Assembly (NCBI GenBank): GCA_964395265.1 | Contig: CAYNDM010000002.1 | Coordinates: forward strand, 1 to 38,475 | Reading direction: 5' to 3' | DNA from: an uncultured Bacteriovoracaceae bacterium | Lineage (GTDB): Bacteria; Bdellovibrionota; UBA1018 | Length of the DNA: 38,475 nucleotides | Shown here: in pieces, positions 3,304-38,003 of the stretch | Position numbering within the stretch: position 1 is the stretch's first letter | Layout of the letters: every line of letters begins with the position of its first letter | Program-made: the position numbers and the translations under genes | The notes under the pieces: model-generated | Seen by the model: the letters and a program-made list of their open reading frames with translations, nothing else | What the model was told of the DNA's origin: nothing | The model's database searches: none

Positions 3304-4074
3304 ATGAGAAAAATCCAGGCGGGTGAATGGAGCGCGATTGCGGCGGGATTTGCTTCGGGCGGGTGGGCGACAACTGCGCTCGCGTTGCCAGGTCTCGATA
3401 CCACGACCCTCGATGCCTTGCAGGCTTCGATGGTGGAGTCGCTCGTCAAAACCGTGGCGATCGGAGCTGACCATCGCGCTTATGAGCCAGCGAGCCCGCT
3501 CGGATACGTGATTGGCCTGGACGTCGGCGTCGATGCGACCGTCATGAGTCTCCCCGACGACTTCAAGGAAGCTTTGACAGTGGCGGGAGCCGGGACCAAC
3601 GTTCCCGACGTGATTCCGTTGCCCAGGCTCAATATCCACAAGGGGCTTCCCTGGGGCGTGGACCTCGGGTTCACCTATGCGGGCTTTCAGGGCAATAGCC
3701 TCATTGGCGGGGATATCAAGTGGGCGTTCCTTCCCGGCAACGCAGCCAGGCCCTCGGTCGACGCTCGAGTGAGCTATTCCTCCTCCAATCTGTTCTTCCT
3801 GAAGACGAAGACCGCCAAAGTCGACGTGCTGGCCTCGAAGAAGCTAGGTTGGGTTCTGGATCCTTATGTCGGCATGGGGATGCAGTTCGCCTCAGGGGAG
3901 ATTCAGGTTCCCGTGGGCCAGAGCCTGTCCGTTTCAGGATCCCATTCCGCATCGGCATTTCATATGTACGCGGGCCTGCCGATCAAGCTGGCGTTCGTCA
4001 AGCTCACGGCTGAATACGATTACAGCTTCATCGGAATGTCGAGCTTCGGTGCGAAATTCTCTCTCTCTTTCTAA
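3304..4074 (+). CDS. Putative outer-membrane beta-barrel protein
   Basis: There is an N-terminal signal-like segment (..AAGFASGGWATTALA). Alternating Gly/aromatic beta-strand patterns follow, and the protein ends ..FGAKFSLSF (terminal Phe typical of OMPs). Confidence 0.55.
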   Translation: MRKIQAGEWSAIAAGFASGGWATTALALPGLDTTTLDALQASMVESLVKTVAIGADHRAYEPASPLGYVIGLDVGVDATVMSLPDDFKEALTVAGAGTNVPDVIPLPRLNIHKGLPWGVDLGFTYAGFQGNSLIGGDIKWAFLPGNAARPSVDARVSYSSSNLFFLKTKTAKVDVLASKKLGWVLDPYVGMGMQFASGEIQVPVGQSLSVSGSHSASAFHMYAGLPIKLAFVKLTAEYDYSFIGMSSFGAKFSLSF

Positions 4075-5011: not shown

Positions 5012-6373
5012 CTAAGCGAAGAAATCCTTGGGGAGGTCGATCCCCGAGTCCCGAAGCCTTTCGGCAAAGGTGGGGACCATGCCGGTCATCTGGATTCGAT
5101 CGTTCTCGGCCTCGTAGAGAAAAAGATCCTGGATGGTGATGGTCTCACCCTCCATTCCGGTCACCTCGGCCACATGCACGATCCTACGCTTGCCGCTCCG
5201 CAAGCGCTTGACGTGGATGAGCAGGTCGAGTGCGCTCGCGATCTGTTTGCGGATCGCCTTGAGCGGGACATCAACGCCGGACATCATGCATAAGGTCTCG
5301 ATTCTCGCCAGTGCGTCGCGCGGGGAGTTGGCGTGCACGGTGGTCATCGCGCCCGAGTGGCCCGTGTTCATGGCCTGGAGCATGTCGAGCGATTCACCTT
5401 TTCGGCATTCTCCGATGATGATGCGGTCAGGCCTCATTCTTAGGGAGTTGGCGACCAGATCGCGGGCGCTGATCGCCGGGCTCAGAGGCGTGTGCAGCTT
5501 GGTCTGCATTCTCACGCTATTGGGCAGGGCGAGCATCAGCTCGGGGGTGTCTTCGATCGTCACCACCCGCTCGTGGGCGGGCACGAAACCGAGAAGAGCG
5601 CCGAGGAGCGATGTCTTTCCGCTTCCGGTTCCGCCCGAGATCAGGATGTTCATTCTTCCTTGGACGCTGTACCCGAGAAACATCGCCAGCTTTTGGTCCA
5701 GCATCCCACGGGCGATCAGATCACTGGCCGATAGGTGTCGCGCGGGGAACTTGCGGATGGTGATGCTGGGGCCGGTCAGGGTCACGGGAGCAATGACGAT
5801 ATTGACACGCGACCCGTCCGGGAGCGTGGCATCCAGGTAAGGAATCTCTGGGCTGATAACCCTGCCGACAACCTCGCAGATGATTCCGATCGCGCGATAG
5901 ACTTCGTCGTTCGACGCGAATCCCGCTTGCGTCGTGATCATTTTTCCTTCGCGTTCGACGATGATGCTCCGCGTGTCGTTCACCATGATCTCGCTGACCG
6001 TGGGGTCGGCTAGAAACGGGTCGAGAGGGCCCAGTGAGGGAAGCTTTTGGCGAGGGGACGCCTTGTTGCGAGCGGTCGCCGCACCCGTGTTCAAAGTGGG
6101 GGGCGTCCCGGAACTCGGAACGGTCGCCATGCCTGTGTTCGAAACGGCTGGCGCGTTCGCTTGGGGCTTCGAAAACCGGCCTGGCTCTGACCCGTTGGGG
6201 GGTTCGAAATGAGGATCGGTTTGGTCATCGGCTCCGTCATCGATGATGATCGTCCGCACCGGTTGGTGAGGGGGAGCCGGAGGAGTCGGGCCCGATGGCA
6301 CTGGTTTCAAAGTCGACCCAGTCGATCCAGGAGTGGGAGGCCGGTTTTTTTTTCGAGCGGGATCCTGGCTCAT
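5012..6373 (-). CDS. cpaF: CpaF/TadA-family type II/IV secretion ATPase (Flp/Tad pilus-type) with a long Pro-rich N-terminal extension
   Basis: Walker A ISGGTGSGKTSLLGAL, then ERVVTIEDTPEL, IIIGECRKGESLDMLQAMNTGHSG, and His-box TTVHANS. About 120 N-terminal residues are Pro/Thr/Ala-rich and low complexity. Confidence 0.85.
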   Translation of the reverse strand: MSQDPARKKNRPPTPGSTGSTLKPVPSGPTPPAPPHQPVRTIIIDDGADDQTDPHFEPPNGSEPGRFSKPQANAPAVSNTGMATVPSSGTPPTLNTGAATARNKASPRQKLPSLGPLDPFLADPTVSEIMVNDTRSIIVEREGKMITTQAGFASNDEVYRAIGIICEVVGRVISPEIPYLDATLPDGSRVNIVIAPVTLTGPSITIRKFPARHLSASDLIARGMLDQKLAMFLGYSVQGRMNILISGGTGSGKTSLLGALLGFVPAHERVVTIEDTPELMLALPNSVRMQTKLHTPLSPAISARDLVANSLRMRPDRIIIGECRKGESLDMLQAMNTGHSGAMTTVHANSPRDALARIETLCMMSGVDVPLKAIRKQIASALDLLIHVKRLRSGKRRIVHVAEVTGMEGETITIQDLFLYEAENDRIQMTGMVPTFAERLRDSGIDLPKDFFA

Positions 6374-6491
6374 CTCATCTTTAACGGTAGCATGGAGATC
6401 CTCGCCGCGCCTTCGGCAAGTTTTGCCGGGAGGATCGCCTGTCTCGGGGAAAGCGTCCTTCCGGGAAAAGCTTCGTTGCTGATTTCCAGCT

Positions 6492-6620
6492 TTATCGCGC
6501 GTCGATCAGCGTGGGCGGCACGGGCTGATTGGCGTCGGGGAAATGAAGGGTTTCGATGATGGACCCAGGTCCCACTCCGGACACTTCTCCTTGCCTCCCC
6601 TTCACCTCGATCTGGCTCAT
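6492..6620 (-). CDS. Candidate small ORF (42 aa) upstream of cpaF
   Basis: Not in the ORF track because it is under 60 aa. ATG at 6620 is preceded by GAAAGGAAA, and the ORF reads MSQIEVKGRQGEVSGVGPGSIIETLHFPDANQPVPPTLIDAR*. No recognisable family. Confidence 0.25.
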   Translation of the reverse strand: MSQIEVKGRQGEVSGVGPGSIIETLHFPDANQPVPPTLIDAR

Positions 6621-22811: not shown

Positions 22812-25800
22812 TCAGGCCGGTGAAGTCTGGACCTGGCTCCTGAAAAGCTCCAAATAGACCCCCGCTTTGCGCATCAGCTCGTCATGAGTCCCTTCCTCGA
22901 CGATTTTCCCGTCCTGCATGACCAGGATCCTGTCGGCGAGCCGAACCGATGAGAGGCGATGCGCGATGATGATCGATGTGCGATCCTTGAGAATTTCTTT
23001 GAGGTTGTTCAGCAAGGTTCTCTCCGAGCGGGCGTCCAGGGCGGAGGTCGCCTCGTCCAGGATCAGGATGCGTGGATTGCGATAAAGAGTGCGAGCGAAG
23101 GAGATCCTCTGACGCTCGCCTCCTGATAGGCCTGTTCCGTTCTCCGCCAGGGTGTATTCGTAGCCCCGGGGCAGCTCCGAAATGAATTCGAAGCGTTTGC
23201 CTGTTTGGCGGCCTCGTCGATCCTGTCCTGGCATGGGGTATCGTCTCCATAGGCGATGTTGTCCAGCAGGTTACCGGCGAAAAGGTCGTTGTTCTGGTTG
23301 ATGAAGCCGATCTGGTTCCTCAGGGAGAAAATCGAGATGAAGGAGCTGTCCATGTCATCGAAGTAGATCTTTCCGGAGCTAGGCCTCAGGTTGCCTGCGA
23401 TCAGGTTCGCCAGCGTCGTTTTTCCGCATCCGCTCGCGCCGACGATCGCCACGACCTGCCGGGGATAGATCGTGAGGTCCACGTCCTGGATGACCCAAGG
23501 CGCGTCTTCCGAATGCCTGAACTGGATGCGCTCCAGGCGGATTTTCCCACGAAGGGGGAAATGATGCTTCAGGCGGGTTTCGGATGGGCTTTGTTCGGGT
23601 TCCTGGGCAAAAGTCTCGGCCAGCTTTCGAAGGGAGACGTCGAATTGCATGACCTCGAATGTCAGGTGCGAGAGCTGCAGGAACGGCTCGAAGAAGAAAC
23701 CCATCAGGATCATCGCTGACAAGATCTGCCCCGTGGACATTTCTCCATTCATCGCGAGATGTCCGCCGATCCAGACCGTGAGCACCAGAACCGCTCTGAG
23801 GAGCCATTCGATGAAGACCCGACTCGACTGGAACACCATCCAGAAGTTCCTCAGAGAGCGAATCCGAAGTACCTGCAGGGTCTCCCATTTGTGTCGCATG
23901 GCCTGCTCGATCCCCAAGGCTTTGATGGCGGTGATCGCTCCAACCTGCTCGGAGATGATGCTCTGTGATTTCGAGTCCACGTCGAAAATCCTCGAGTACA
24001 TCGCGCGAAGGCGTTTCCACGGGGCTAGCAGGAGCGTGGTCGCGAGCATCGCTGCGACGACCGCCGTCAGAGCGAGAGGTGGCGCGTAAAGCGCTAGGGC
24101 AATTAAATAGACGAGGCTGGATATCGCCCCTGTCCCGCACTCGAGGACCGGGCCGGAGAGGGTTCGCTGGATCTGCGAAACCGCTTCGACGCGCGTGAGG
24201 ATCGATCCGGTGCGGTCCGAAGCGAATCGTCGGGTTGGAAGGGCCAGCGCGTGCCGAAGGAGAGACGTCGAGAGCTCTTCGTCGAAGCGGGTGGAGAACT
24301 CGACCCGCATGAGTTCCCATGCCGCTTTCACCGCGACGGACAGGAGAATCAGGAGAACCAATCCGCCGAGAATCCATTGGAGACCGTGCCAGGATCGGCT
24401 CACGAAAACTTGATCGAGCGCGACCTGAGTCAGCACTGGCAAGCCGAGCGTCAATAGCGAGCCTATGATGCTCAGGCCGAGGATCGCGAGGAGATCGGAC
24501 CGGTATCGCGCGATCAGGCGAGTAAGGCTCAGCGTCGATGCGGGATTCTCTTGCTCAGAAAGGGCTTCGCCGTTGATGGGAGCGCGGGTTTCCAGTAGTA
24601 GTCCGTCCCAATTCTTCTCGAAGTCCTCGCTCCGGATCCGGACCACGCCGCGCGCGGGGTCATGAACCAGAAGGGGGCCGTTCCGGCCTTCTCTCTTGAG
24701 AAGGATGACCAGCCGGTGCTTGAGCATCACCAGCGCCGGCAACGCGTGCTGGGCGATCAAGCGCATGCTGGTTTTCCGGCTGGATGTCTGCACGCCGAGG
24801 GATTCGAGAATTTCGGCCAGGATCCCTAGGGAAGCCTGCTTTCTGAGGAGGAGCTGGCTTTCGATCCCCGACGGGCTGACGACGATTCCGTGCAAAGCGC
24901 AGACGTTGACGACGCTCGCGACATAGCTCATCAGATCGGATTCGGCCCTGCAGGCACCGGGAATCTCGATCGAATTCGGGCGACTCTCCGTCGAGAGACC
25001 GACCACGGTTTCTCCCGGGAGCTCGCTCAATCCTCCCTGCCTGAGTTCCGAGGATCTCGTCGCGCTCGCCGTCGCGTAGATCCACGGGTCGTCAAAGATC
25101 GGCTCGAGCAATCCAAGGCTTTCGAACAGGGGCGCGGCTCGCGAAAGATCGAGCTGGTGGACCATCGAAAGCTCGCTGGCAATCGCCGTGTAGGAGAGGC
25201 GATGAGGAGGGACGATGGCTTGTCCTCCGATCCAGGTCCCGGAGCCGGCTTCCGTCGTGAGAGGGGCGGAGCCTTCGGTTGCCCGGATGGTGAACTTTCC
25301 GGATAGGACAAAGTGGATGAATCCCTCCGTGAGAGCGGTCGAGACGGGAATCTCGCGAGGATCCGGGGGAATGAGGGAAATTAGATGGATGATGCTGGAT
25401 TGGGCGATCCCGCGGTCTTCGAGAAAGCGTCTGAACGAACGAACGGCAGGCGAGCTGGATACGAGCTTGAGGTAAGCCAGGCAGTCCGGTCGCAGGGAGA
25501 GCTGCTCCATGAACCTGTTCGCCGGCAGAGTGATCACTTTAGTGCGGGTCTCGGCGAAAGCCGAACGGGCGTGGGGGCGGCCTTGGATGAGGTCCGGGAG
25601 CGAAAGCGCTCGGTGCTTCTGCAGGTAACCCGTTTCGCCTCGTTCGGACGAGAGACGGAGGCCGTGGTCGATCGGGATGATCAGCTCGGTGATCGGCTCG
25701 CCTTCGGTCGTGATCTGCGCGTCGGGAGCGTATGAGCGAACAGTCCCCTCGTTCAAGAGCATTTGCTCAAGCTCGGGAAGGATGGCCAGGAGCGAGCTTT

Positions 25801-25837
25801 CCTTCAATTCGATCAGGATTTTCGAAAAGGTCGCCAT
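22812..25837 (-). CDS. ABC exporter with two N-terminal cNMP-binding-like domains and a Cys-less C39-like domain; reading frame broken once in the NBD (frameshift near 23190)
   Basis: Track ORFs 23063..25837 and 22812..23234 are one gene. The first carries a CNB-like PBC (GRPHARSAFAE), a C39-like region lacking the catalytic Cys (ESDLMSYVASVVNV.. but KHRLVIL, VHDPARG), six-TM ABC_membrane and Walker A GASGCGKTT. The second continues with FEFISELPRGYEYTLAENGTGLSGGERQR, ILILDEATSALD and IIAHRL. The junction reads ..IDEAAKQANA/FEFISEL.. if one base is added at GCTTCG (plus-strand AA at 23191-23192). Confidence 0.8.
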
Positions 25838-25843
25838 GATCGG

Positions 25844-26467
25844 TCACTCGCCCGAATTCACGCCAAAGCCCAAAAAGCGCTCCGAGACCAAAGAGATGAT
25901 TCGTTGGCTCTCTGTGATGATGGATGCCTTCACGCTCATGCCCGAGCGCAAGGGATAGTCGCGGACGTAGACTTGCAAGGCAGGGTTCTCGATTCTGGCG
26001 AATACGACGTGGCAGTGAGGTTTTTTCGAGTCGCAGTCATCGGAGACGACCGGTTGCGATTCGATCACGGCGGTCAGGGTTCCGAAACTTTCTTCTGGAT
26101 AGGGATCGACGCGAATCACTGCTTTCGATCCTTGCTTCACTCGAAGGATGCCATGAGGAGGAACCTCGAGCTTGGCGAATACGCCGGAAGCGGACGGGGC
26201 GGCTTTGGTAGCTCCGGTCCGCGAAGAAAGCTTCACATCTGGGGCGGGGGATTCGTGAGGGAGGAAAAGAGTGCCGCGCGCGTCGAGGGTGACCGTTGTT
26301 CGCGCGAAGATCGAGAACGCCAGGAGGCCTCCCAGGCACGCGGTGAGGGAGTAGAGCATGAGCCTGACCGAGAATGAAGGAGGAGTCCTGATGAAGTCAG
26401 CTGTTGTCCAGGCGACTTCCGTAGCGTGATACTCCAGGCTCGCGCGTCTTCCTAAGTCCTCATCCAT
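25844..26467 (-). CDS. Short HlyD-family membrane-fusion-like protein (no coiled-coil hairpin)
   Basis: N-terminal TM (LMLYSLTACLGGLLAFSIF). Beta-rich segments typical of MFP barrel domains follow (GILRVKQGSKAVIRVDPYPEESFGTLTAVIES; LRSGMSVKASIITESQRIISLV). It ends 6 nt before the ABC gene start, suggesting an operon. Confidence 0.6.
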   Translation of the reverse strand: MDEDLGRRASLEYHATEVAWTTADFIRTPPSFSVRLMLYSLTACLGGLLAFSIFARTTVTLDARGTLFLPHESPAPDVKLSSRTGATKAAPSASGVFAKLEVPPHGILRVKQGSKAVIRVDPYPEESFGTLTAVIESQPVVSDDCDSKKPHCHVVFARIENPALQVYVRDYPLRSGMSVKASIITESQRIISLVSERFLGFGVNSGE

Positions 26468-26627
26468 CGTTGTGTCATGATCAGTGTAATCTTCGCCTTG
26501 CGAGGCTCACAAGAAATTACTTTTCAATGTCGGATAGGTTTCCTAGGCTTATACGATGGGGTGACGGATCGCATCGCGGACCGGCCCATTCAAGGGCGTC
26601 AAGGGAATGGCATAATCTCGCCGAAGC

Positions 26628-29624
26628 ATGGATAAGATCACGGCAATCGAAAGCGCGCGGCTACGATCGGTCCTGACTGGACTTCCCGCCCAATGGGTAG
26701 AGGCCGTATTGGCGGATGCGGAGCTCGTCAATTTGCCCAAGGGGCAAGCGCTTTTTGCCCCCGGCGCCGAGCGCGTTCCCTGGATCGTGGCCGAAGGTCA
26801 GTTGTCTCGGGGATCCGAATCCGCGATATCAGGCGATCTGGTCGATCCGCGGGAGGACGCTTCGGATGAACGCGAGGCTATAGACTGGTCCGCTGAGGAA
26901 GTCAGTGGAGTCCTGCTTCTTCAGCCCTCCGCCTACGACCGGCTATTGGGCGAGGATCCCTCCGCACGCGAATACTTTCGTAGGTCCAGGCTTGAGTCCC
27001 TGCGCGGGCTCAAGATCGATCTGGTTCTGTCGGGGTTGCCGCAATCGCTGCTTTCTCCCACGCTGAACGCGTTGGTCGAGATGACATTCGAGGAATTCCA
27101 GAACGTTTGGGGGGATTCCACAGGGCTCCTGGTAGTCCAAGAAGGTGGGATCGAGGCGACTTCCCATAGGGGAGGAGACACGCTAGGAGTGGTCTGGCGT
27201 GGCGATTATTTTTTCTGTCGACGCACGCGCGCGTCGATTCAATGGATCGCGCGGCCAGAGACTCGGGTTTGGTGGCTCGGCTCCGGGCATTGGGCGCGGG
27301 CTTGTCGGACCAACCACGTCCACGGGATTTTTCCGGTACTCGATCCGTTGAAGAAAAAGATCGAGGCGGGACTGCACAAGCTCAAGGCGGTCTCGCCGAG
27401 GCACGCGAGCGAGGTCTCCGAGGACGATGGGGACGACGAGGATTTAGACCGCTTTTTTGCCAACGGAGAGGACTATGGTTGGAAGCCGCCAAGGCGATCC
27501 GCGGTCGTCATCCAGAACGACGAGATGGATTGCGCGGCGGCATGTCTTGCCTCGATCTGCGCTTACCATGGCAGAAGGATCGGCATCCAGAAGCTTCGCG
27601 AGCTCCTGCGGGTGAGCCGGGACGGAACGTCTCTTGAGTCACTCCTTGAGGGCGCGCTCACCGTGGGATTCGATGCCGTGCCGCTTGAGCTGGACGCATC
27701 GGACTTGGGGAATCTGAAACTGCCGTGCATCGCCCTCGTGGGTTATCACTACATGGTACTCTACGACTTCGGGCAAAGGGGCGCGCTCGTGATGGATCCC
27801 TCCGTGGGGATTCTGCGAAAGTCCTCCGAAGAGTTTCTGCGGGATTGGTCCGGTTACGCCCTGGCTCTCAGACCGACTGAGTCGCTTTTCCGTTATCCGG
27901 AGTCCGGTACGGATTATGCGAAGTATCTCGCGCTTCTGAAACACCACTGGGGCAGCGTAGGCGAGCTCTTTCTCGCATCTTCCCTGGGTCTGGCCTTGAG
28001 CCTGGCAGTGCCATTGGGGATGCGAACTCTGCTCGATGATATCGTGCCGAAAGGGAACCCGCCTGAGCTTCGCGTGGCGGTGCTCGTGGTTCTTGGAATC
28101 GTCGCGGTTTCGGGCGTGTTCGGGCTGATTCACCAGTACCTGATGGATCATCTGCGAGCGAGGCTGGAGACGAAGTTCTCCGCACTGTTCATCACGCATG
28201 TTTTCAAGTTGCCTCTCAGCTTCTTCTCTCTTCGGAAGGTCGGTGACATCACCTCCCGGATGGTCGATCTGATCTGGATCCGAGACGCCTTTACCGGCCA
28301 CGCCAACGAGATCATCCTCGGTGGGATGGCCATGCTGGCCTACCTCGTTCTGCTCGCTGCCTTTAGCTGGCAGGTCGCTTTGATGGCCTGCCTGATCCTG
28401 GGCGGCCTGGCCTTGTTCATCGTGTGGATTTTCAGAAAGCTCTCCGTCGTTCGAAAAGAGCTGATGAGCGCGACCGCCCTTACCAAGAGCATCTTATTCG
28501 AGCAGTTTCGCTCCCTCGAGACTCTGAAATCCTTGAATGCGCAGGTGCAGGCGCGGTGGCGATGGGAGTTTGCCCGTCTCAGGATGCTGCAGGCCGAACG
28601 CAAGTCCCGATTCCTGCTTTGCGGGGTCTTGGGTGCGTCGGAGCTGGCGCGGAACGCGTTGATCATCGGCGCTCTCTCGTTGGGCGCGGTGCTCCTGCTC
28701 GATGGAAAGCTTTCGCCGGGTCAGCTCGTGGCCATCAACGCGATCATAGTCGGGCTCACCACGCCGTTGCTGATGGTCATCGATCGACTCGGAGATTGGA
28801 ACCAGGTCGTCGTCTCCTTCGGGAGGGTCGACGACGTGTTCGTCGCTTTGCCGGAGCAGCGATGCGCCAAGGAGCGACCCGTCGAATTCGCTTTCGCCAA
28901 CGAGATCCGCTTCGAGGACGTTTACCACTCTTACGGGGATCCTTCGGAGGATGTCCTGAATGGAGTCAGTTTCTCGGTCAGGGCCGGGGACACGGTGGCC
29001 TTCGTGGGATCGAGCGGCTCGGGGAAGAGCACGCTAGCTTACTTGATCAGCCGTCTCTACCGTCCCCGCGAGGGCAGGATCCTGATCGATGGGGTGGAGT
29101 CCGGGGATTTCGCGCTCGAGGAGCTCAGGCGGAACGTGGGCATGGTGATTCAGGAGAACAGCCTGTTTTCAGGCTCGATTCTCGAGAACATCGCCTCCGG
29201 ATCCCCTCACCCCGATCTGGAGCGCGCGATCCGCGCGGCGATCCTGGCGGACGCCCATGAGTTCATCTCGCGACTTCCACAGGGCTACCTGAGTCAGCTC
29301 GGCGAGGGAGGCATGGGCCTTTCGGGAGGCCAAAAGCAGAAGATCAATATTGCCCGCGCGCTGTACAATGACCCGCCGATCCTCATTCTTGACGAGGCTA
29401 CCTCCGCCTTGGACGCCATCTCGGAGGAGTCGATCATCCGGAACCTTCGCAATATCGGGCGCAAGCGAACACTGATATTCATCGCTCACCGCCTGAACAC
29501 CATCCGGCATGCCGATCGGATCCTAGTGCTCGAAAAAGGAAAGATCGTAGAATCGGGGAGCCATGACGAGCTTCTCGGCCGAGGCGGAGTATACTCCCAG
29601 CTCCTGCGCGATCAGCTATCCTGA
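26628..29624 (+). CDS. Peptidase-containing ABC transporter (PCAT): cNMP-binding-like domains + intact C39 peptidase + TMD + NBD
   Basis: C39 catalytic set: VIQNDEMDCAAACLASI (Gln/Cys), GYHYMVLYD (His), VMDPSVG (Asp). Six-TM ABC_membrane region is present. NBD: Walker A GSSGSGKST, signature LSGGQKQ, Walker B ILILDEATSALD, H-loop IAHRL. Confidence 0.85.
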   Translation: MDKITAIESARLRSVLTGLPAQWVEAVLADAELVNLPKGQALFAPGAERVPWIVAEGQLSRGSESAISGDLVDPREDASDEREAIDWSAEEVSGVLLLQPSAYDRLLGEDPSAREYFRRSRLESLRGLKIDLVLSGLPQSLLSPTLNALVEMTFEEFQNVWGDSTGLLVVQEGGIEATSHRGGDTLGVVWRGDYFFCRRTRASIQWIARPETRVWWLGSGHWARACRTNHVHGIFPVLDPLKKKIEAGLHKLKAVSPRHASEVSEDDGDDEDLDRFFANGEDYGWKPPRRSAVVIQNDEMDCAAACLASICAYHGRRIGIQKLRELLRVSRDGTSLESLLEGALTVGFDAVPLELDASDLGNLKLPCIALVGYHYMVLYDFGQRGALVMDPSVGILRKSSEEFLRDWSGYALALRPTESLFRYPESGTDYAKYLALLKHHWGSVGELFLASSLGLALSLAVPLGMRTLLDDIVPKGNPPELRVAVLVVLGIVAVSGVFGLIHQYLMDHLRARLETKFSALFITHVFKLPLSFFSLRKVGDITSRMVDLIWIRDAFTGHANEIILGGMAMLAYLVLLAAFSWQVALMACLILGGLALFIVWIFRKLSVVRKELMSATALTKSILFEQFRSLETLKSLNAQVQARWRWEFARLRMLQAERKSRFLLCGVLGASELARNALIIGALSLGAVLLLDGKLSPGQLVAINAIIVGLTTPLLMVIDRLGDWNQVVVSFGRVDDVFVALPEQRCAKERPVEFAFANEIRFEDVYHSYGDPSEDVLNGVSFSVRAGDTVAFVGSSGSGKSTLAYLISRLYRPREGRILIDGVESGDFALEELRRNVGMVIQENSLFSGSILENIASGSPHPDLERAIRAAILADAHEFISRLPQGYLSQLGEGGMGLSGGQKQKINIARALYNDPPILILDEATSALDAISEESIIRNLRNIGRKRTLIFIAHRLNTIRHADRILVLEKGKIVESGSHDELLGRGGVYSQLLRDQLS

Positions 29625-31450: not shown

Positions 31451-31543
31451 TTAGTACGGAGGCTTAAATACAGGCTTTGCACCACCTTTGATCTTTTTCA
31501 GACTCGATTTGCTGAGTTTCTTTTTGCTTGCTTGCTTCTTCAT
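31451..31543 (-). CDS. 30-aa double-glycine-leader precursor peptide: MKKQASKKKLSKSSLKKIKGG|AKPVFKPPY
   Basis: My own translation of the minus strand; the ORF is absent from the track because it is under 60 aa. AGGAG lies 5 nt upstream of the ATG at 31543, and the stop TAA is at 31451-31453. The leader matches LSxxELxxIxGG at L-12, S-11, L-7, I-4 and G-2/G-1. A terminator follows, and C39-ABC exporters are encoded nearby. Confidence 0.7.
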   Translation of the reverse strand: MKKQASKKKLSKSSLKKIKGGAKPVFKPPY

Positions 31544-31944: not shown

Positions 31945-32882
31945 ATGAAAAGAGGCAATAGGACGAACGCGACCACTTCGGCTGTGAGCGGGTCGCCGCT
32001 GGTCAGCATCATCATGCCTGCCTACAACGTGGAAAAGTACATCGGGGATTCGATTCGCTCCGCTCTCGCTCAGTCTCACAGAAACATCGAGCTTATCATC
32101 GTCGACGATGGCTCGCGCGATCGGACCGCGCGCGTCTGCCAGACGTGGTGTCGGCGCGACCGTCGAGTCCGGCTGATCCGAGCGAGGAATGGAGGGGTCG
32201 CCAGAGCCCGGAATATTGGGATCCGGAGCGCCAAGGGCGAGTGGATCGCGTTCATGGACTCGGATGATCTTTGGAAGGCAAGGAAGCTTGAGCGGCAGCT
32301 CCGAGCCGCGCGCGAAATGGGCGCGGATGTGGTCTATACGGGGGCATGGATGTTCTGGAACGATCGTCCGGAGCGCCCCGAAGTGCCTCTCGGTATCAGG
32401 GCCGGGCGTTTTACCTCCGAAGCGATGCTGAATGCCTGCTGGGAGGCAGTCACTTCCTCCCTTCGACGGTGCTCATGTCGAGAGAGATCATCCGCAGGAC
32501 GGGCCTCTTCAAGGAAAAGGGCTGGATCGCGAGAGAGGTGGAAGACTGGGAGTTCTTCATCCGAATGGCGGATCGGGGAGGCGGCGTATTTTTTGGGTTG
32601 GAAGATTGCCTGGTTCTATATCGGGTCAGGCCGGGATCGACCTCAAGCTCGCATGAGCCTCACCATTGGGGAATGCTGAAGCTGCTCGATATCTATCGGG
32701 AGCACCCTAAAGCCAAGAAAGTCGTGATCAAGGCGTCGTATATGCAGACATGTCGCAGGATCGTGGCATTTCAGTATGGGAATCGGGCCTTCAATCAGCT
32801 CGGAAAGATCTTCGAAGCCGTACGGAGCCACTATCCCGGCGAACAGAAGCGCTTCCTCGAGTTCATCAACCAGATCCTGTGA
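31945..32882 (+). CDS. Family-2 glycosyltransferase, reading frame broken once (near 32436)
   Basis: GT2 motifs VSIIMPAYNVEKYI, ELIIVDDGSRD and AFMDSDD are in ORF 31945..32679. The continuation LLGGSHFLPSTVLMSREIIRRTGLF...EDWEFFIRMA...LVLYRV is in ORF 32346..32882. Adding one C to the CC at 32435-32436 gives ..SEAMLNALLGGSHF... Confidence 0.75.
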
Positions 32883-33962: not shown

Positions 33963-34163
33963 CTTCCCCTCTCAGTCATTTTTTTGGTGGTGACTGTAGT
34001 ATGCGCAGACTCACGCGATTTCTTCAAGATTACGCGGCTTGCGTTCGCTTCTGTCAATTTCCTGACTTCAAGGGGGATCGTCCGGTTCACGGGTTTCTGT
34101 AGACATTGTCAAGAAATCTCCCGATGATTGAAAGAGATCCAAGACATCGCAAGGGAGATCCGA

Positions 34164-35363
34164 ATGACCAAGTCCGGAGTTGGTTATAGCGAGAAAGTGA
34201 ATTCGAACGAAGCAGGGACGGAGGCAGCCCAGCAGGCTCTAGCGTCCAGCAAGATATCGGGCAGGAAGGTCGCCTTGCTCTTCTCGACTGCCAAGCACAA
34301 CCCCAAGGAGCTTCTGTCGTCGGTGCTTTCGGTGCTCGGTGCGGATACCAAGATCTACGGCGGCTCCGTTTGCGGCATCATCAGCAAGGAAAAGGTCAGC
34401 TACAACGGCTTCGAGGTCGGTCTCGCCGTGTTCTCCGCCGACGAAGTCAAGATCGACGGTCACATCGTCAGAAACATCAAGGGCAGGGAGCTGGAGTCCG
34501 GCGTCGAGCTGGGGCAACAGCTTGCATCGCGGAAGTTCGCGGAGGACGATACGTTATTCGTCGGATTCGAGGCGATCCGAGGCGAGGGGCCAACCCAGCT
34601 GTTGAACTTCGGAACGCCGATCCTCGAAGGCATGTCGCAGTCGCTGAAGTCCTGGCCGAACACGATAGGCGCTGCATTTCAGGGCGATTTCAATTTTCAG
34701 TCGTCCTTCACGTTTTTCGACAGCGAGGTCGAGACGGCCGCCGCCATCGCGCTGATCATTTCGGGCAAGAAGAGCCGCTCCGTCCTGATGCATGGCTGCA
34801 CGCCCATGAGCGACTATTACAAGATCACCAAGTGCGCGGGCAACGTCGTGCTCGAGATCGACGGCAAACCGGCGCTCGAGCGGGTTTCGGAGATTCTCGG
34901 GCCCGGCTCGGACAAGACCTGGGAAGAGTACCCTCTCTATCTGAATTTCGGACGAAATCACGGCGACAAGTTCGACGATTTCATCGAGGAGCGCTACACG
35001 AACAATATGTGCGTGGCGATCGATCCCCCGAGCAAGGCATTGGTGCTTTTCGAGCCCAGCTTCAAGGAAGGCGACGAGTTCCAGCTCATGCGCCGCCATA
35101 AGGAGTTCAATACTATGGAGGAGCGCCTGGACGGATTTTTCAAGGAAGGGAAGGCGCCGTTTTTCAATCTTTACGTCGACTGCGTGGGCCGTTCAGGCAT
35201 GCTCATGGGAACCGAGACCGAAGACGCGACCGTCGTTCAGAAATTCGTGAAGGACGCCCCTGCGGCGTTCTTGGGCATTTACGGGGGCCGAGAGATCGCG
35301 AAGTTCGGCGCCCAGCCCGCAGTGGTCTGCCTCACCGGCGTGCTCACGTCGTTCGCGGACTGA
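34164..35363 (+). CDS. FIST-domain (FIST_N/FIST_C) sensory protein
   Basis: AGGGAG lies 6 nt upstream of the ATG at 34164 (the track starts at TTG 34128). The layout and motifs are typical of FIST proteins: ..AGTEAAQQAL...VALLFST...IYGGSVCGIIS...; later FFNLYVDCVGR and FLGIYGGREIA. Confidence 0.7.
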   Translation: MTKSGVGYSEKVNSNEAGTEAAQQALASSKISGRKVALLFSTAKHNPKELLSSVLSVLGADTKIYGGSVCGIISKEKVSYNGFEVGLAVFSADEVKIDGHIVRNIKGRELESGVELGQQLASRKFAEDDTLFVGFEAIRGEGPTQLLNFGTPILEGMSQSLKSWPNTIGAAFQGDFNFQSSFTFFDSEVETAAAIALIISGKKSRSVLMHGCTPMSDYYKITKCAGNVVLEIDGKPALERVSEILGPGSDKTWEEYPLYLNFGRNHGDKFDDFIEERYTNNMCVAIDPPSKALVLFEPSFKEGDEFQLMRRHKEFNTMEERLDGFFKEGKAPFFNLYVDCVGRSGMLMGTETEDATVVQKFVKDAPAAFLGIYGGREIAKFGAQPAVVCLTGVLTSFAD

Positions 35364-35376
35364 ATGGATCAGAGCG

Positions 35377-38003
35377 ATGTCTGAAGATCGGGACAGGATA
35401 GCCATCTCGAGAAAGAGGCCAGCTATTACAAGAAAAAGGTCAACGAACTTACCGGACATAACCTTTCGCTCGAGTACAAGATCGGCGCTCTCATCAACGA
35501 GCTCAAGCAGAAAAGGCTCGGGTTCGAGTTGCTCTCCCAGCTTCAACAATCGATCGGAACCTATCGCGAGGCGTCCGGCATCTTCGAGTTCGCACTCAAG
35601 GCGATGATTTCCTCGCTCAATATGGAGCGAGCCGTGGCGCTGGTCCCGGCGGCGCGGGAGAACGTCTACAGCATCTCGAAGATCCTGGGATACACTGCTG
35701 AGCTCGAGGAACGGCTCAAAGAGAAGAAGATCGAAGTCCCGAAAGAGCTTCAGGCAGAGGGAAGCTTCTTGGTCGTCAACAAAAGCAGCAGCAGCAACGA
35801 GTTGATCGAGAGCATACGCGAGGCGCTGGACCTGCCGTACTTCATTCTCGTTCCGGTGCTGGTGGAAAAGAAGCCCATCGGGATCATCATCACCGGCAGG
35901 ATGCAGGAGCAGAGGCCCGTCAAGCTTCCTCTCGACAAAGGGGATGCCGAGACCGTGCAGTCCATCGGCGGACTGATCGCCGCGTCGGTCCACAACCTTC
36001 GAGTTTACGCGCTTGAGGAGACCCAGAAACTCCAGACGGATTTTTTCGCCAATATCTCCCACGAGTTCAGGACGCCGATCACCCTGACTTTGGGCCCCCT
36101 CGAGGGGCTGCTTTCGGGTCGCTACGGGAACCTCCCCGAGGCGGCAAAAAACCAGGTTGAGGTGATGTTGCGAAATCAGCAGCGCCTTTTGAAATTGATC
36201 AACGAGATCTTGGACCTGACCAAAGTGGAAGCCGGGAAAATGCAGCTGCATGCGTCCAAGGTTCGCAGCTTCAACAGCTTCGTTCAGGACAGGGTCGAGC
36301 AGTTCAGGTCGCTGGCAGAAAAACGAGGGATCGAGCTTAGGTCCAAGCTCGATCCCGAGGTGGATAAGGCGGAGCTTTACCTCGACCTAGAGAAGATCGA
36401 CAAGGTCATCTTCAATCTCTTGTCGAACGCCCACAAATTCACCAAATCCGGCCATGTCGAAGCCAGAACGGCGATCCAGGATGGATCTTTTGTCTTCACC
36501 GTCTCTGACACCGGGATCGGCATCAAGGCGGATCAGCTCATCTATGTCTTCGATCGGTTCAAACAAGCCGATGGAAGCTCGTCGCGAGAGTACGCGGGAA
36601 CTGGAATCGGTCTCTCCCTGGTCAAGGAGCTGGTGCAGCTGCATTCCGGCCAGATCTCGGTTCATAGCGAGTACGGAAAAGGAACCACGTTCACGGTCAC
36701 GATCCCGGTGGGCAAGGCTCACTTGGATCCCGCTAGCCTTGCGGATGCCCCCGATGCCGAACCAATTCAACCCATGCCGGCGTCGGTAAACCGGGTCGTC
36801 GAGATTCGCGAGGGGGTGGCGGAGAAGGACGAGCTCGAGGAGATCGAAGCGCTCAATGCCAAGACTCGCGAAAATTGGGTGGAGGGTCGAGGGACGATTC
36901 TCTACACGGACGATAACCGCGACCTGCGCTGTTATGTCTACGAGATCCTCTCGGAGCATCATAATGTCTACCTGGCTCATCATGGCAAAGCCGGTCTCGA
37001 GCTGGCTCTGCAAGTGGACGTCGATCTGATTCTCTCGGATCTCATGATGCCTGTCATGACGGGCACCGAGTTTCTGCGAAGTGTTCGAATGGAGAACCGC
37101 CTGCAAGGTATCCCATTCGTCTTATTGACCGCGAAGTCGACCAGCGATTCGAAACTGGAAGGACTCGAGACCGGGGCGGACGATTACCTGAGCAAGCCTT
37201 TCTCCGAGAGCGAGCTCAAGGCGAGGATCAAGAATCTCATCAAGCTTCGTCAGCAGCATTTGCGGATCCGGCGCGAGCTCGAGGCGGCCAGGCAGATCCA
37301 GCAAGCATTGCTTCCGAAGCTCGACCTGAGGGGAAAAAATTACCTACTCGACGCGCTTTACGAGCCGTCCGAGGAGCTTTCCGGCGATTTCTACGACTAC
37401 CTTGAAAACGGGGATTGGGTCTATTTCTACCTGGCCGACGTCACCAGTCATGGGACGGCCGCGGCCCAGGTCACCTACCTGCTCAAGACAATGATGGGGC
37501 AGCTGATTACCGAGGGGGAGCCTCCGGCGCTTTCGAGGCTTCTCGCGGAGCTCGCGCGTCGGTACTGCGAGTACGGGCTGAACTACGGCATCGGGATCCA
37601 GGTGGCCCGTTTCAATAAAAAGCGTCAAATCATGGAGTGCGCGATGAGCAATGCCCCCAGGGCCATCGTGTTCAGGAACTGCAATCAGGAGATCCTGCGT
37701 CTTCGTCCGGGACCGATTATTGACAGCGCGACCGGCGGGCGCAAAATCAGGCCCGAGGATTTCGAGGTGTGCCAGCTCGCGCTGAAACCAGGTGATTCGG
37801 CTTATTTCTTCACCGACGGCTGTTACGAGCTGCCGACAGGCGACGATTCGGCCCCGTTGGGCTACAGAAGGTTCAGCAAGATCATATCCGACCTTAACCG
37901 CAGCCAATGGAAGGAAGACCTCCTGACTACGCTCAAGGGGTTTCGGTCCGCCGGCAGCAACGACGTGGACGATATGACCGTCCTGATGTTCCGCCTTCAA
38001 TAG
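35377..38003 (+). CDS. Hybrid signalling protein: coiled coil + GAF-like + HisKA/HATPase_c + REC + PP2C/SpoIIE phosphatase; 5' end apparently frameshifted (near 35403)
   Basis: H-box FFANISHEFRTPIT. HATPase boxes LLSNAHKFT, DTGIGI, GTGIGLSLVKEL. REC: ILYTDDN...LILSDLMMPVMTG...DDYLSKPF. PP2C/SpoIIE: LSGDFYDY, ADVTSHG, FFTDGCYE, DDMTVLMF. The intact ORF starts at TTG 35529. However, the same frame is protein-like (HLEKEASYYKKKVNELTGHNLSLEYKIGALINELKQKR) back to 35385 with no start codon. ATG 35377 (MSEDRDRIA) joins it if one C is added to the GCC at 35401-35403. Confidence 0.8.

Follow-up and report, generated by a model that had tools for sequence, protein, structure and literature searches.

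We report that the two large ATP-binding cassette (ABC) proteins encoded at positions 22812-29624 of a 38,475-nucleotide stretch of an uncultured Bacteriovoracaceae bacterium (phylum Bdellovibrionota; contig CAYNDM010000002.1 of assembly GCA_964395265.1; hereafter the window) are probably the protease-dead and the protease-live subunits of a single peptide-processing ABC exporter, itself conserved within Bdellovibrionota. Throughout the text, the minus-strand ABC subunit is called A and the plus-strand ABC subunit B. In both of them an N-terminal pair of domains with a cyclic nucleotide-binding (CNB) fold is followed by a C39-type domain, a transmembrane domain (TMD) and a nucleotide-binding domain (NBD), the catalytic residues of the peptidase are found in B only, and the two genes recur next to each other in the related genomes.

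The locus holds three genes, not the two described in the sequence-only reading from which this analysis started. The B gene (26628-29624, plus strand) was delimited by its 998-aa open reading frame (ORF) and Pfam matches, the frameshifted A gene (22812-25837, minus strand) by ORFs, Pfam matches and a read-through alignment, and a HlyD-type adaptor gene (25844-26467, minus strand) by its 207-aa ORF, NCBIfam and alignment. Because the HlyD-like ORF sits upstream of the A gene, the gap that separates the B gene from the divergent adaptor-A operon spans 160 bp (26468-26627, by ORF coordinates); a scan of this gap for sigma-70 promoters and terminators gave no match. Where the two minus-strand genes meet, 6 nt separate the adaptor stop codon from the start codon of A (A gene start at 25837), and the two genes would be co-transcribed. 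The ABC genes thus lie on opposite strands, as had been claimed for a divergent pair, but they do not face each other directly (the adaptor gene intervenes), and of the two proteins of roughly 1000 aa only the plus-strand one is encoded by an intact gene, since the minus-strand gene is split by a one-base frameshift. Both the adaptor gene and the frameshift had been overlooked.

Subunit B is composed of two diverged CNB-like domains (residues ~1-135 and ~136-235), a linker, the C39 peptidase domain (292-418), the TMD (447-714) and the NBD (777-998). Pfam recognises Peptidase_C39 (residues 292-418, 5e-31, with the PF03412 match spanning profile positions 3-132), ABC_membrane and ABC_tran, and the AlphaFold2 (AF2) model of residues 1-435 has a predicted local distance difference test (pLDDT) score of 79. 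When searched with Foldseek, the C39 part of this model matched the ComA peptidase domain (PEP, 3k8u; TMt 0.86, root-mean-square deviation (rmsd) 1.9), as well as PCAT1 and LahT150. The start at M1 (ATG at 26628) is backed by the family alignment (conserved M-D start, N-terminal helix, pLDDT 76-86); the public gene call for B (P0001) is 971 aa long and starts 27 codons downstream of 26628. Subunit A has the corresponding layout on the minus strand: CNB 1 (25837-25358), CNB 2 (25357-25103), a dead C39-like domain (~24940-24578), the TMD (24490-23684) and the NBD (23488-22812). Its Pfam matches are cNMP_binding (3.4e-10, two stretches), C39 (1.9e-9, starting at profile position 15), ABC_membrane and ABC_tran, and the AF2 model of residues 1-440 has an overall pLDDT of 64 (83-94 in CNB 1, below 50 in CNB 2 and 65-85 in the C39-like domain).

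A 21-sequence alignment places the catalytic residues of B at Gln296 (27513-27515), Cys302 (27531-27533), His374 (27747-27749) and Asp390 (27795-27797), all on the plus strand, in columns that are conserved in all B-type proteins and in the single-type ones (CNB-C39-ABC proteins encoded without a paired A). The earlier claim that the plus-strand copy keeps the Gln/Cys/His/Asp set is therefore borne out, with the motifs IQNDEMDC, HYMVLYD and MDPS present and aligned with the active C39 set. In the minus-strand copy LMSYVAS does occupy the place of the Cys motif, as had been proposed, and there is no catalytic Cys at the aligned position: depending on a one-residue gap in the alignment, it is taken by Ser304 or Tyr305 (24923-24928, minus strand), and the Gln position by Ala or Glu. 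The closest A relatives carry Ser-Trp or Ser-Tyr at the Cys position, and the C39-like domain of HlyB likewise has a Tyr there (PMC8277102). The further statement that the minus-strand copy retains the His and Asp contexts holds for the Asp alone (Asp393, the sole residue of the catalytic set conserved across A-type proteins), and not for the His, since the one in KHRLVILL falls one column before the catalytic His (MAFFT) at a site where the relatives have Pro, Asn or Arg; in a phmmer alignment of A with PCAT1 the catalytic His stands opposite an Ile. Judged by these residues B is protease-competent and A is protease-dead, the latter more thoroughly so than previously thought.

The pairing of A with B was followed through loci obtained by searching relatives as well as 116 genomes of the order and 401 of the phylum, supplemented by contig look-ups. 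In all nine loci with enough context (window included) A and B are adjacent and share a single adaptor, and every A-type gene with enough context is adjoined by a second ABC gene of ~1000 aa; the G096 and G424 loci are cut by contig ends. Genome G045 (JAIXWV010000020.1) encodes a 191-aa adaptor and an intact 989-aa A on one strand and a divergent 843-aa B. In the contigs of P0035 (locus L162; P0035 is the closest relative of the window B) and P0036 (locus L163) a 420-aa HlyD and an A cut by the contig end, or a 423-aa HlyD and a 1030-aa A, lie divergently from B proteins of 1040 and 1024 aa, respectively. The metagenome contig of P0002 has a 1002-aa ABC protein and a 424-aa HlyD on one side and, on the other, a 496-aa ORF (presumed to be an outer-membrane factor (OMF) by position and length only, with no Pfam match on record) followed by a 998-aa B. 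Comparable arrangements were recovered from G064 (A and a 430-aa HlyD divergent from OMF and B, two contigs being joined through the OMF reading frame) and G066 (A and a 422-aa HlyD divergent from OMF and B, where the B frame runs off the end of one contig and is picked up on a second one). An ORF of G064 that is divergent from the adaptor-A operon was considered as a B N-terminus and rejected, as it is the OMF (60% identical to that of G066).

In two genomes the genes are translationally coupled: G228 encodes a 197-aa adaptor, a 1035-aa A and a 1014-aa B, all co-directional and with ATGA overlaps at both junctions, and in G352, which encodes a ~245-aa adaptor, a 1005-aa A and a 1002-aa B, the A and B genes overlap by ATGA. 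A maximum-likelihood (ML) tree of the TMD and NBD cores resolved an A clade (support 96/89) and a paired-B clade (99/99), and placed the single CNB-C39-ABC proteins as the sister group of B (100/99). A distant tenth pair, from G342, has degenerate motifs in its NBDs, namely a His-to-Gln change in the H-loop of subunit a (VVQNI) and the signature VSEGQ in subunit b.

Two loci, L157 (G342:C22, 163-7539) and L156 (G424:C13), represent a HlyD-ABC-ABC variant whose ABC subunits both lack a recognisable C39 domain and whose two NBDs carry complementary degenerate motifs (VVQNI H-loop and VSEGQ signature).

As assembled, the A gene is split into two ORFs, one at 25837-23063 (924 aa, of which the final 42 are read in the wrong frame) and one at 23234-22812, and its span of 3026 nt equals 3n+2. 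The frameshift site was located at 23190-23191 (minus strand), where two bases (TC) stand for one codon between GCT (Ala882) and GAA TTC (the Glu-Phe of EFISELP), which places it past the Q-loop and ahead of the ABC signature; the true continuation, EFISELPRGYEYTLAENGTGLSGGERQR..., runs in another frame down to 22812. Read through with an X at the break, A is 1008 aa long and 29% identical to B (mostly in the NBD). The 140-aa ORF past the break carries the rest of the NBD (Pfam), and the 126 codons downstream of the break retain LSGGERQR, ILILDEATSALD and IAHRL. The A proteins of the L162 and L163 loci, which are 41% and 38% identical to the window A over the full length, are uninterrupted at this site (AAHSFIEALP and AGA-DFILNLP, respectively). 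Everything else in A (~1008 open codons, all NBD motifs) is intact, a state that suits either a mistake in the assembly or a gene inactivated very recently.

Programmed frameshifting was discarded, as there is no slippery motif at GCT-TC-GAA and the relatives are in frame there. A second assembly of the A gene was sought among metagenome contigs with a degenerate pattern across the break (no match) and with an exact 20-mer (three unrelated contigs only). Other ABC ATPase genes in the genome of the window (G000) appear split (contigs C90, ~6270-6520; C137, ~3620-3940; C286, ~1180-1230), each at a run of N, and hence say nothing on assembly quality.

We regard it as unlikely that A is a pseudogene in a decaying locus, of which only B, as a homodimeric peptidase-containing ABC transporter (PCAT), would be functional, if anything is. 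Such decay would account for the one-base frameshift, for a family 2 glycosyltransferase (GT2) gene of the same region (31945-32882) that is 3n+2 long with the tail of its ORF out of frame, and for a shortened adaptor with no outer-membrane-channel gene, where the closest relatives (L162, L163) have a 420-aa HlyD; moreover, no split genes were found in the housekeeping left half of the window, when overlapping ORF pairs were inspected with Pfam. It fits poorly with ~1008 codons that are open bar one base and with NBD motifs that are intact past the break, and it is further weakened by the 191-aa (G045) and 197-aa (G228) adaptors that accompany intact A and B genes and by the nature of the source assembly, a fragmented metagenome-assembled genome (465 contigs, 3.2 Mb, N50 9 kb). 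The FtsK of the window shares up to 86% identity with counterparts in metagenome-assembled genomes labelled Bacteriovoracaceae, Oligoflexia or Bdellovibrionota.

The adaptor (207 aa) has kept an N-terminal membrane anchor (11-67) and a C-terminal beta-barrel (80-201), and lacks ~220 residues that correspond to the lipoyl domain and the coiled-coil hairpin of the 420-430-aa HlyD proteins of the relatives. BLAST pairs two separate segments of it with the 420-aa HlyD of L162 (residues 11-67 with 13-69, and 80-201 with 290-412), and NCBIfam TIGR01843 matches only its C-terminal part. Homologous short adaptors are encoded beside intact A and B genes (191 aa in G045, 197 aa in G228, ~245 aa in G352), and as those of G045 and G228 accompany intact genes the short adaptor is a real variant, not debris. 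Loci with short adaptors have no OMF gene, and no outer-membrane-channel gene was detected among the window ORFs that were scanned. Given the missing hairpin and the lack of an OMF gene among these ORFs, the cargo may reach the periplasm only. A short adaptor of 155 aa also adjoins P0012.

The best reading of these data, which we judge on sequence grounds to be somewhat more probable than its negation, is that A and B form a heterodimer with one catalytic protease. The single-protease heterodimer of the sequence-only reading thus gains from the live and dead copies and from their recurrent pairing, and the assembly itself is plausible because the pair shares one adaptor, its genes are coupled in G228 and G352, the subunits fall into two old and conserved clades, and the motifs of the G342 pair are asymmetric. 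One degenerate ATP site is a hallmark of heterodimeric ABC exporters (PMC8277102), and the G342 motifs would together form one such site and therefore point to a heterodimer. A single live protease would be mechanistically sufficient, since PCAT1 holds only one of its two bound substrates in place for cleavage (PMC6959990).

Several observations weigh against a heterodimer in the window itself. Both NBDs are canonical (Walker A/B, catalytic Glu, signature and H-loop), which leaves the pair with no asymmetric ATP-site signature, and the A and B genes are divergently transcribed instead of forming one operon. The A gene, as assembled, would yield a protein devoid of signature, Walker B and H-loop, and the probable further single-base frame break in the GT2 gene of the same accessory region could mean that the locus is truly decaying. 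Finally, B could work alone, because its sister group consists of single CNB-C39-ABC proteins that are presumably homodimers.

The canonical NBDs are also what would be expected of two separate homodimers (A2 and B2) sharing one adaptor, with B2 processing double-glycine peptides and A2 serving other cargo or acting as a non-catalytic helper. This arrangement (which we hold to be improbable, at about the same level as locus decay) agrees with the best score of A against the HlyB-type type I secretion system (T1SS) family, with the Tyr/Ser at its Cys position (Tyr in HlyB; PMC8277102), and with the existence of single B-like proteins that have their own HlyD. Both homodimers might even reside in one HlyB/HlyD-like assembly, as the HlyB/HlyD complex is built of three ABC dimers and six HlyD (PMC11026475). 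It leaves unexplained why each A-type gene with a long enough context is accompanied by a second ABC gene of ~1000 aa (in all nine A/B loci and also in G342) and why the A and B genes are ATGA-coupled in G228 and G352, the complementary degenerate motifs of the G342 pair make sense only in a heterodimer, and no gene for RTX-like cargo was seen in the window.

The N-terminal regions had been proposed to score as CNB domains, which proved correct for A by Pfam (PF00027, 40.2 bits against a gathering threshold of 27.5, in two stretches), while B had no PF00027 match at E <= 0.1 and qualifies by profile and fold only. Most of the N-terminal relatives of B match PF00027 at 1e-6 to 1e-9, and the family profile retrieved from the PDB cGMP-dependent protein kinase (PKG; 9e-22, as a multi-domain protein) and, at ~1e-11, single CNB domains of PKG and of the regulatory subunit of cAMP-dependent protein kinase (PKA-R). 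With Foldseek the N-terminal ~280 aa of B matched the tandem CNB domains of PKA-R/PKG (~1e-10), and the top matches of the A model were the tandem CNB domains of PKA RI-alpha (1.4e-9). Hence, both A and B begin with a tandem CNB fold. Searches with these regions turned up few relatives: for the first 290 residues of B we found 8 among 1.8 billion representative proteins and 2 by word-index search, for the A N-terminus a word-index homology search found only itself, and a two-sequence A N-terminal profile returned generic ABC exporters only.

Whether a cyclic nucleotide could bind was judged from the phosphate-binding cassette. In the B-family consensus (GRSLEL...W.YDW.A; HMM alignment to PKG) Glu-Leu takes the Gly-Glu position of the cassette and Glu/Trp its Arg position, and in the window B the cassette is more degraded still (SGDLVDPREDASDERE). 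CNB 1 of A (PDLIQGRPHARSAF) comes close to a PKA-type cassette, with Pro-Asp...Arg-Ser-Ala and an acidic residue nine positions before Arg-Ser-Ala, in a presumed register, that of the PKA RI-alpha cassette; every other A-type protein has Tyr or Gln in place of the Arg. The earlier suggestion of gating by a cyclic nucleotide (cAMP or cGMP) is thus not supported, since the cassette residues are conserved neither in the B family nor in the A relatives. We consider it very unlikely that cAMP or cGMP, bound to the N-terminal domains, acts as a direct switch of the exporter: the tandem CNB fold of both subunits and the PKA-like cassette of the window A (in the presumed register) would suit it, and the loss of Gly-Glu and Arg from the B-family consensus and the Tyr or Gln of the other A-type proteins speak against it, as does the behaviour of HetC, a CNB-PCAT that is stabilised by GTP and ppGpp and not by cAMP or 2-oxoglutarate (PMC10986499). 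The sequence-only reading, which named in-silico surveys of CNB-PCATs, had missed this experimental work. A non-cyclic-nucleotide ligand is a possible alternative for the CNB-like domains. We know of no CNB-PCAT other than HetC that has so far been tested experimentally.

A candidate substrate is encoded 1.8 kb from B by a 30-aa ORF (31451-31543, minus strand), whose translation MKKQASKKKLSKSSLKKIKGG-AKPVFKPPY (predicted cut at the hyphen) consists of a Lys-rich double-glycine leader ending in ...LKKIKGG and a 9-residue core ending in Tyr. It is the likely substrate of B, which is predicted to cleave it. We reason that A and B would assemble into the heterodimer, that B would cleave a small precursor, for instance this one, at its double-glycine leader, that the dead C39-like domain of A may serve as a non-cutting docking or regulatory module, and that the ligand sensed by the CNB-like domains would probably be neither cAMP nor cGMP. 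The window machine would represent a reduced form, with an adaptor that has no coiled-coil hairpin and no outer-membrane-channel gene in the locus. A bolder version, which we put forward as doubtful but worth stating, is an obligate asymmetric heterodimeric PCAT with one peptidase that cuts and one domain that holds without cutting, in which four CNB-fold sensors would gate export in response to a non-cyclic nucleotide (e.g., a ppGpp-like alarmone, as in HetC) and, in the reduced form of the window, the processed peptide would end up in the periplasm and not outside the cell; if true, the periplasmic release of a processed peptide would be a distinct type-I-like mode of export in predatory bacteria.

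Near the exporter are genes for a VAO-type FAD oxidase, a GT2 and an O-methyltransferase. The GT2 gene (31945-32882, plus strand) is 938 nt long (3n+2), of its 244-aa ORF just residues 21-134 match the Pfam GT2 domain, and the tail is Arg/Ser-rich and seemingly out of frame. Genes for a FIST protein and an HK-REC-SpoIIE/PP2C fusion (34128-38003, plus strand) are likewise neighbours of the orthologous exporter on the contig of P0035 (L162 11334-15197), where the tailoring genes differ from those of the window (a methyltransferase, a PF02441 flavoprotein and a 504-aa protein of unknown function). This FIST/HK-REC-PP2C signalling pair may belong to the exporter module, as opposed to the peptide chemistry.

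PCATs and type I exporters have been studied almost solely as homodimers, and here the live- and dead-protease subunits always occur together, both with tandem sensor-like domains. They offer a natural system for asking whether one active peptidase per PCAT cycle is enough (as the PCAT1 structures suggest), what role dead C39-like domains play and how CNB-type domains regulate export, and the hairpin-less adaptors bear on whether and how such pumps cross the outer membrane. In present annotation the A and B genes carry merely generic names, and A, being split, would be miscalled as two proteins.

Among the known systems, the one that most resembles B in domain content is HetC of Nostoc sp. PCC 7120, which likewise combines a CNB-type domain, an active C39 domain, a TMD and an NBD on one polypeptide, and in which peptidase and ATPase are both required and the CNB domain does not bind cAMP (PMC10986499). 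HetC is a single gene product, whereas the window encodes two paralogous subunits, one of them peptidase-dead and each with a tandem CNB-like pair, and the HetC-like cyanobacterial proteins fall into another clade of the tree. In its catalytic part B is close to PCAT1 of Clostridium thermocellum (PDB 4RY2, 6V9Z; PMC6959990) and ComA, on which its C39 domain superposes with an rmsd of 1.3-2.0 A at 32-36% identity and with the same catalytic residues; PCAT1, however, is a ~730-aa homodimer from a monoderm, with neither CNB domain nor adaptor.

A, in turn, resembles HlyB of the E. coli haemolysin T1SS (PDB 3ZUA) in having a C39-like domain without the catalytic Cys and a HlyD-type partner (PMC8277102), and A relatives (G064, G066) also have an OMF gene. 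TIGR01846 is its best NCBIfam match (260.3 + 172.2 bits against a cut-off of 725.55; B scored 445.4). HlyB differs in being a homodimer without CNB domains that exports a large RTX protein by a C-terminal signal, whereas A is always paired with a protease-active paralogue. A precedent is the MARTX system of Vibrio (RtxB/RtxD/RtxE/TolC; PMC3034196), which needs two different ABC proteins alongside a single adaptor and a single outer-membrane channel, although, as compared by description only, neither ABC protein is said to have CNB domains or a working leader peptidase and its cargo is a very large toxin. As to heterodimeric exporters of the TM287/288 and TmrAB type, the half-transporter genes of the window are adjacent but divergent (those of G228 and G352 being co-directional with an ATGA overlap), and the degenerate ATP site of that type is lacking in the window and present only in the distant G342 pair.

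In gene content the closest likeness is with the NHLP/NHLM bacteriocin export set, in which an ABC protein with peptidase (TIGR03796), an ABC protein without it (TIGR03797) and a HlyD-like protein (TIGR03794) are encoded near small precursor peptides (PMC2887384). The same trio of cleaving ABC protein, non-cleaving ABC protein and HlyD-like adaptor is complete in the window and in eight further loci, with the window adaptor being truncated by contrast. The scores of B against TIGR03796 (458.2 bits, curated cut-off 853.3) and of A against TIGR03797 (200.0 + 134.0 bits in two pieces, cut-off 709.4) remain far below the thresholds, as do those of the intact G228 orthologues against the NHLM models (481.7 and 318.1, as compared to 910.6 for the control P0092); an hhalign comparison of the A-type N-terminal profile with a TIGR03797 member showed no similarity (probability 0.3%), and true NHLM members (P0067, P0092) sit elsewhere in the tree on long branches, unlike the window A and B. 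By curated cut-offs and tree, then, A and B are placed outside TIGR03796, TIGR03797 and TIGR01846. The exporter would operate as a HetC-type PCAT does, in partnership with a non-cleaving paralogue like that of the NHLM set, and we regard it as a so far undescribed variation on a familiar type of pump.

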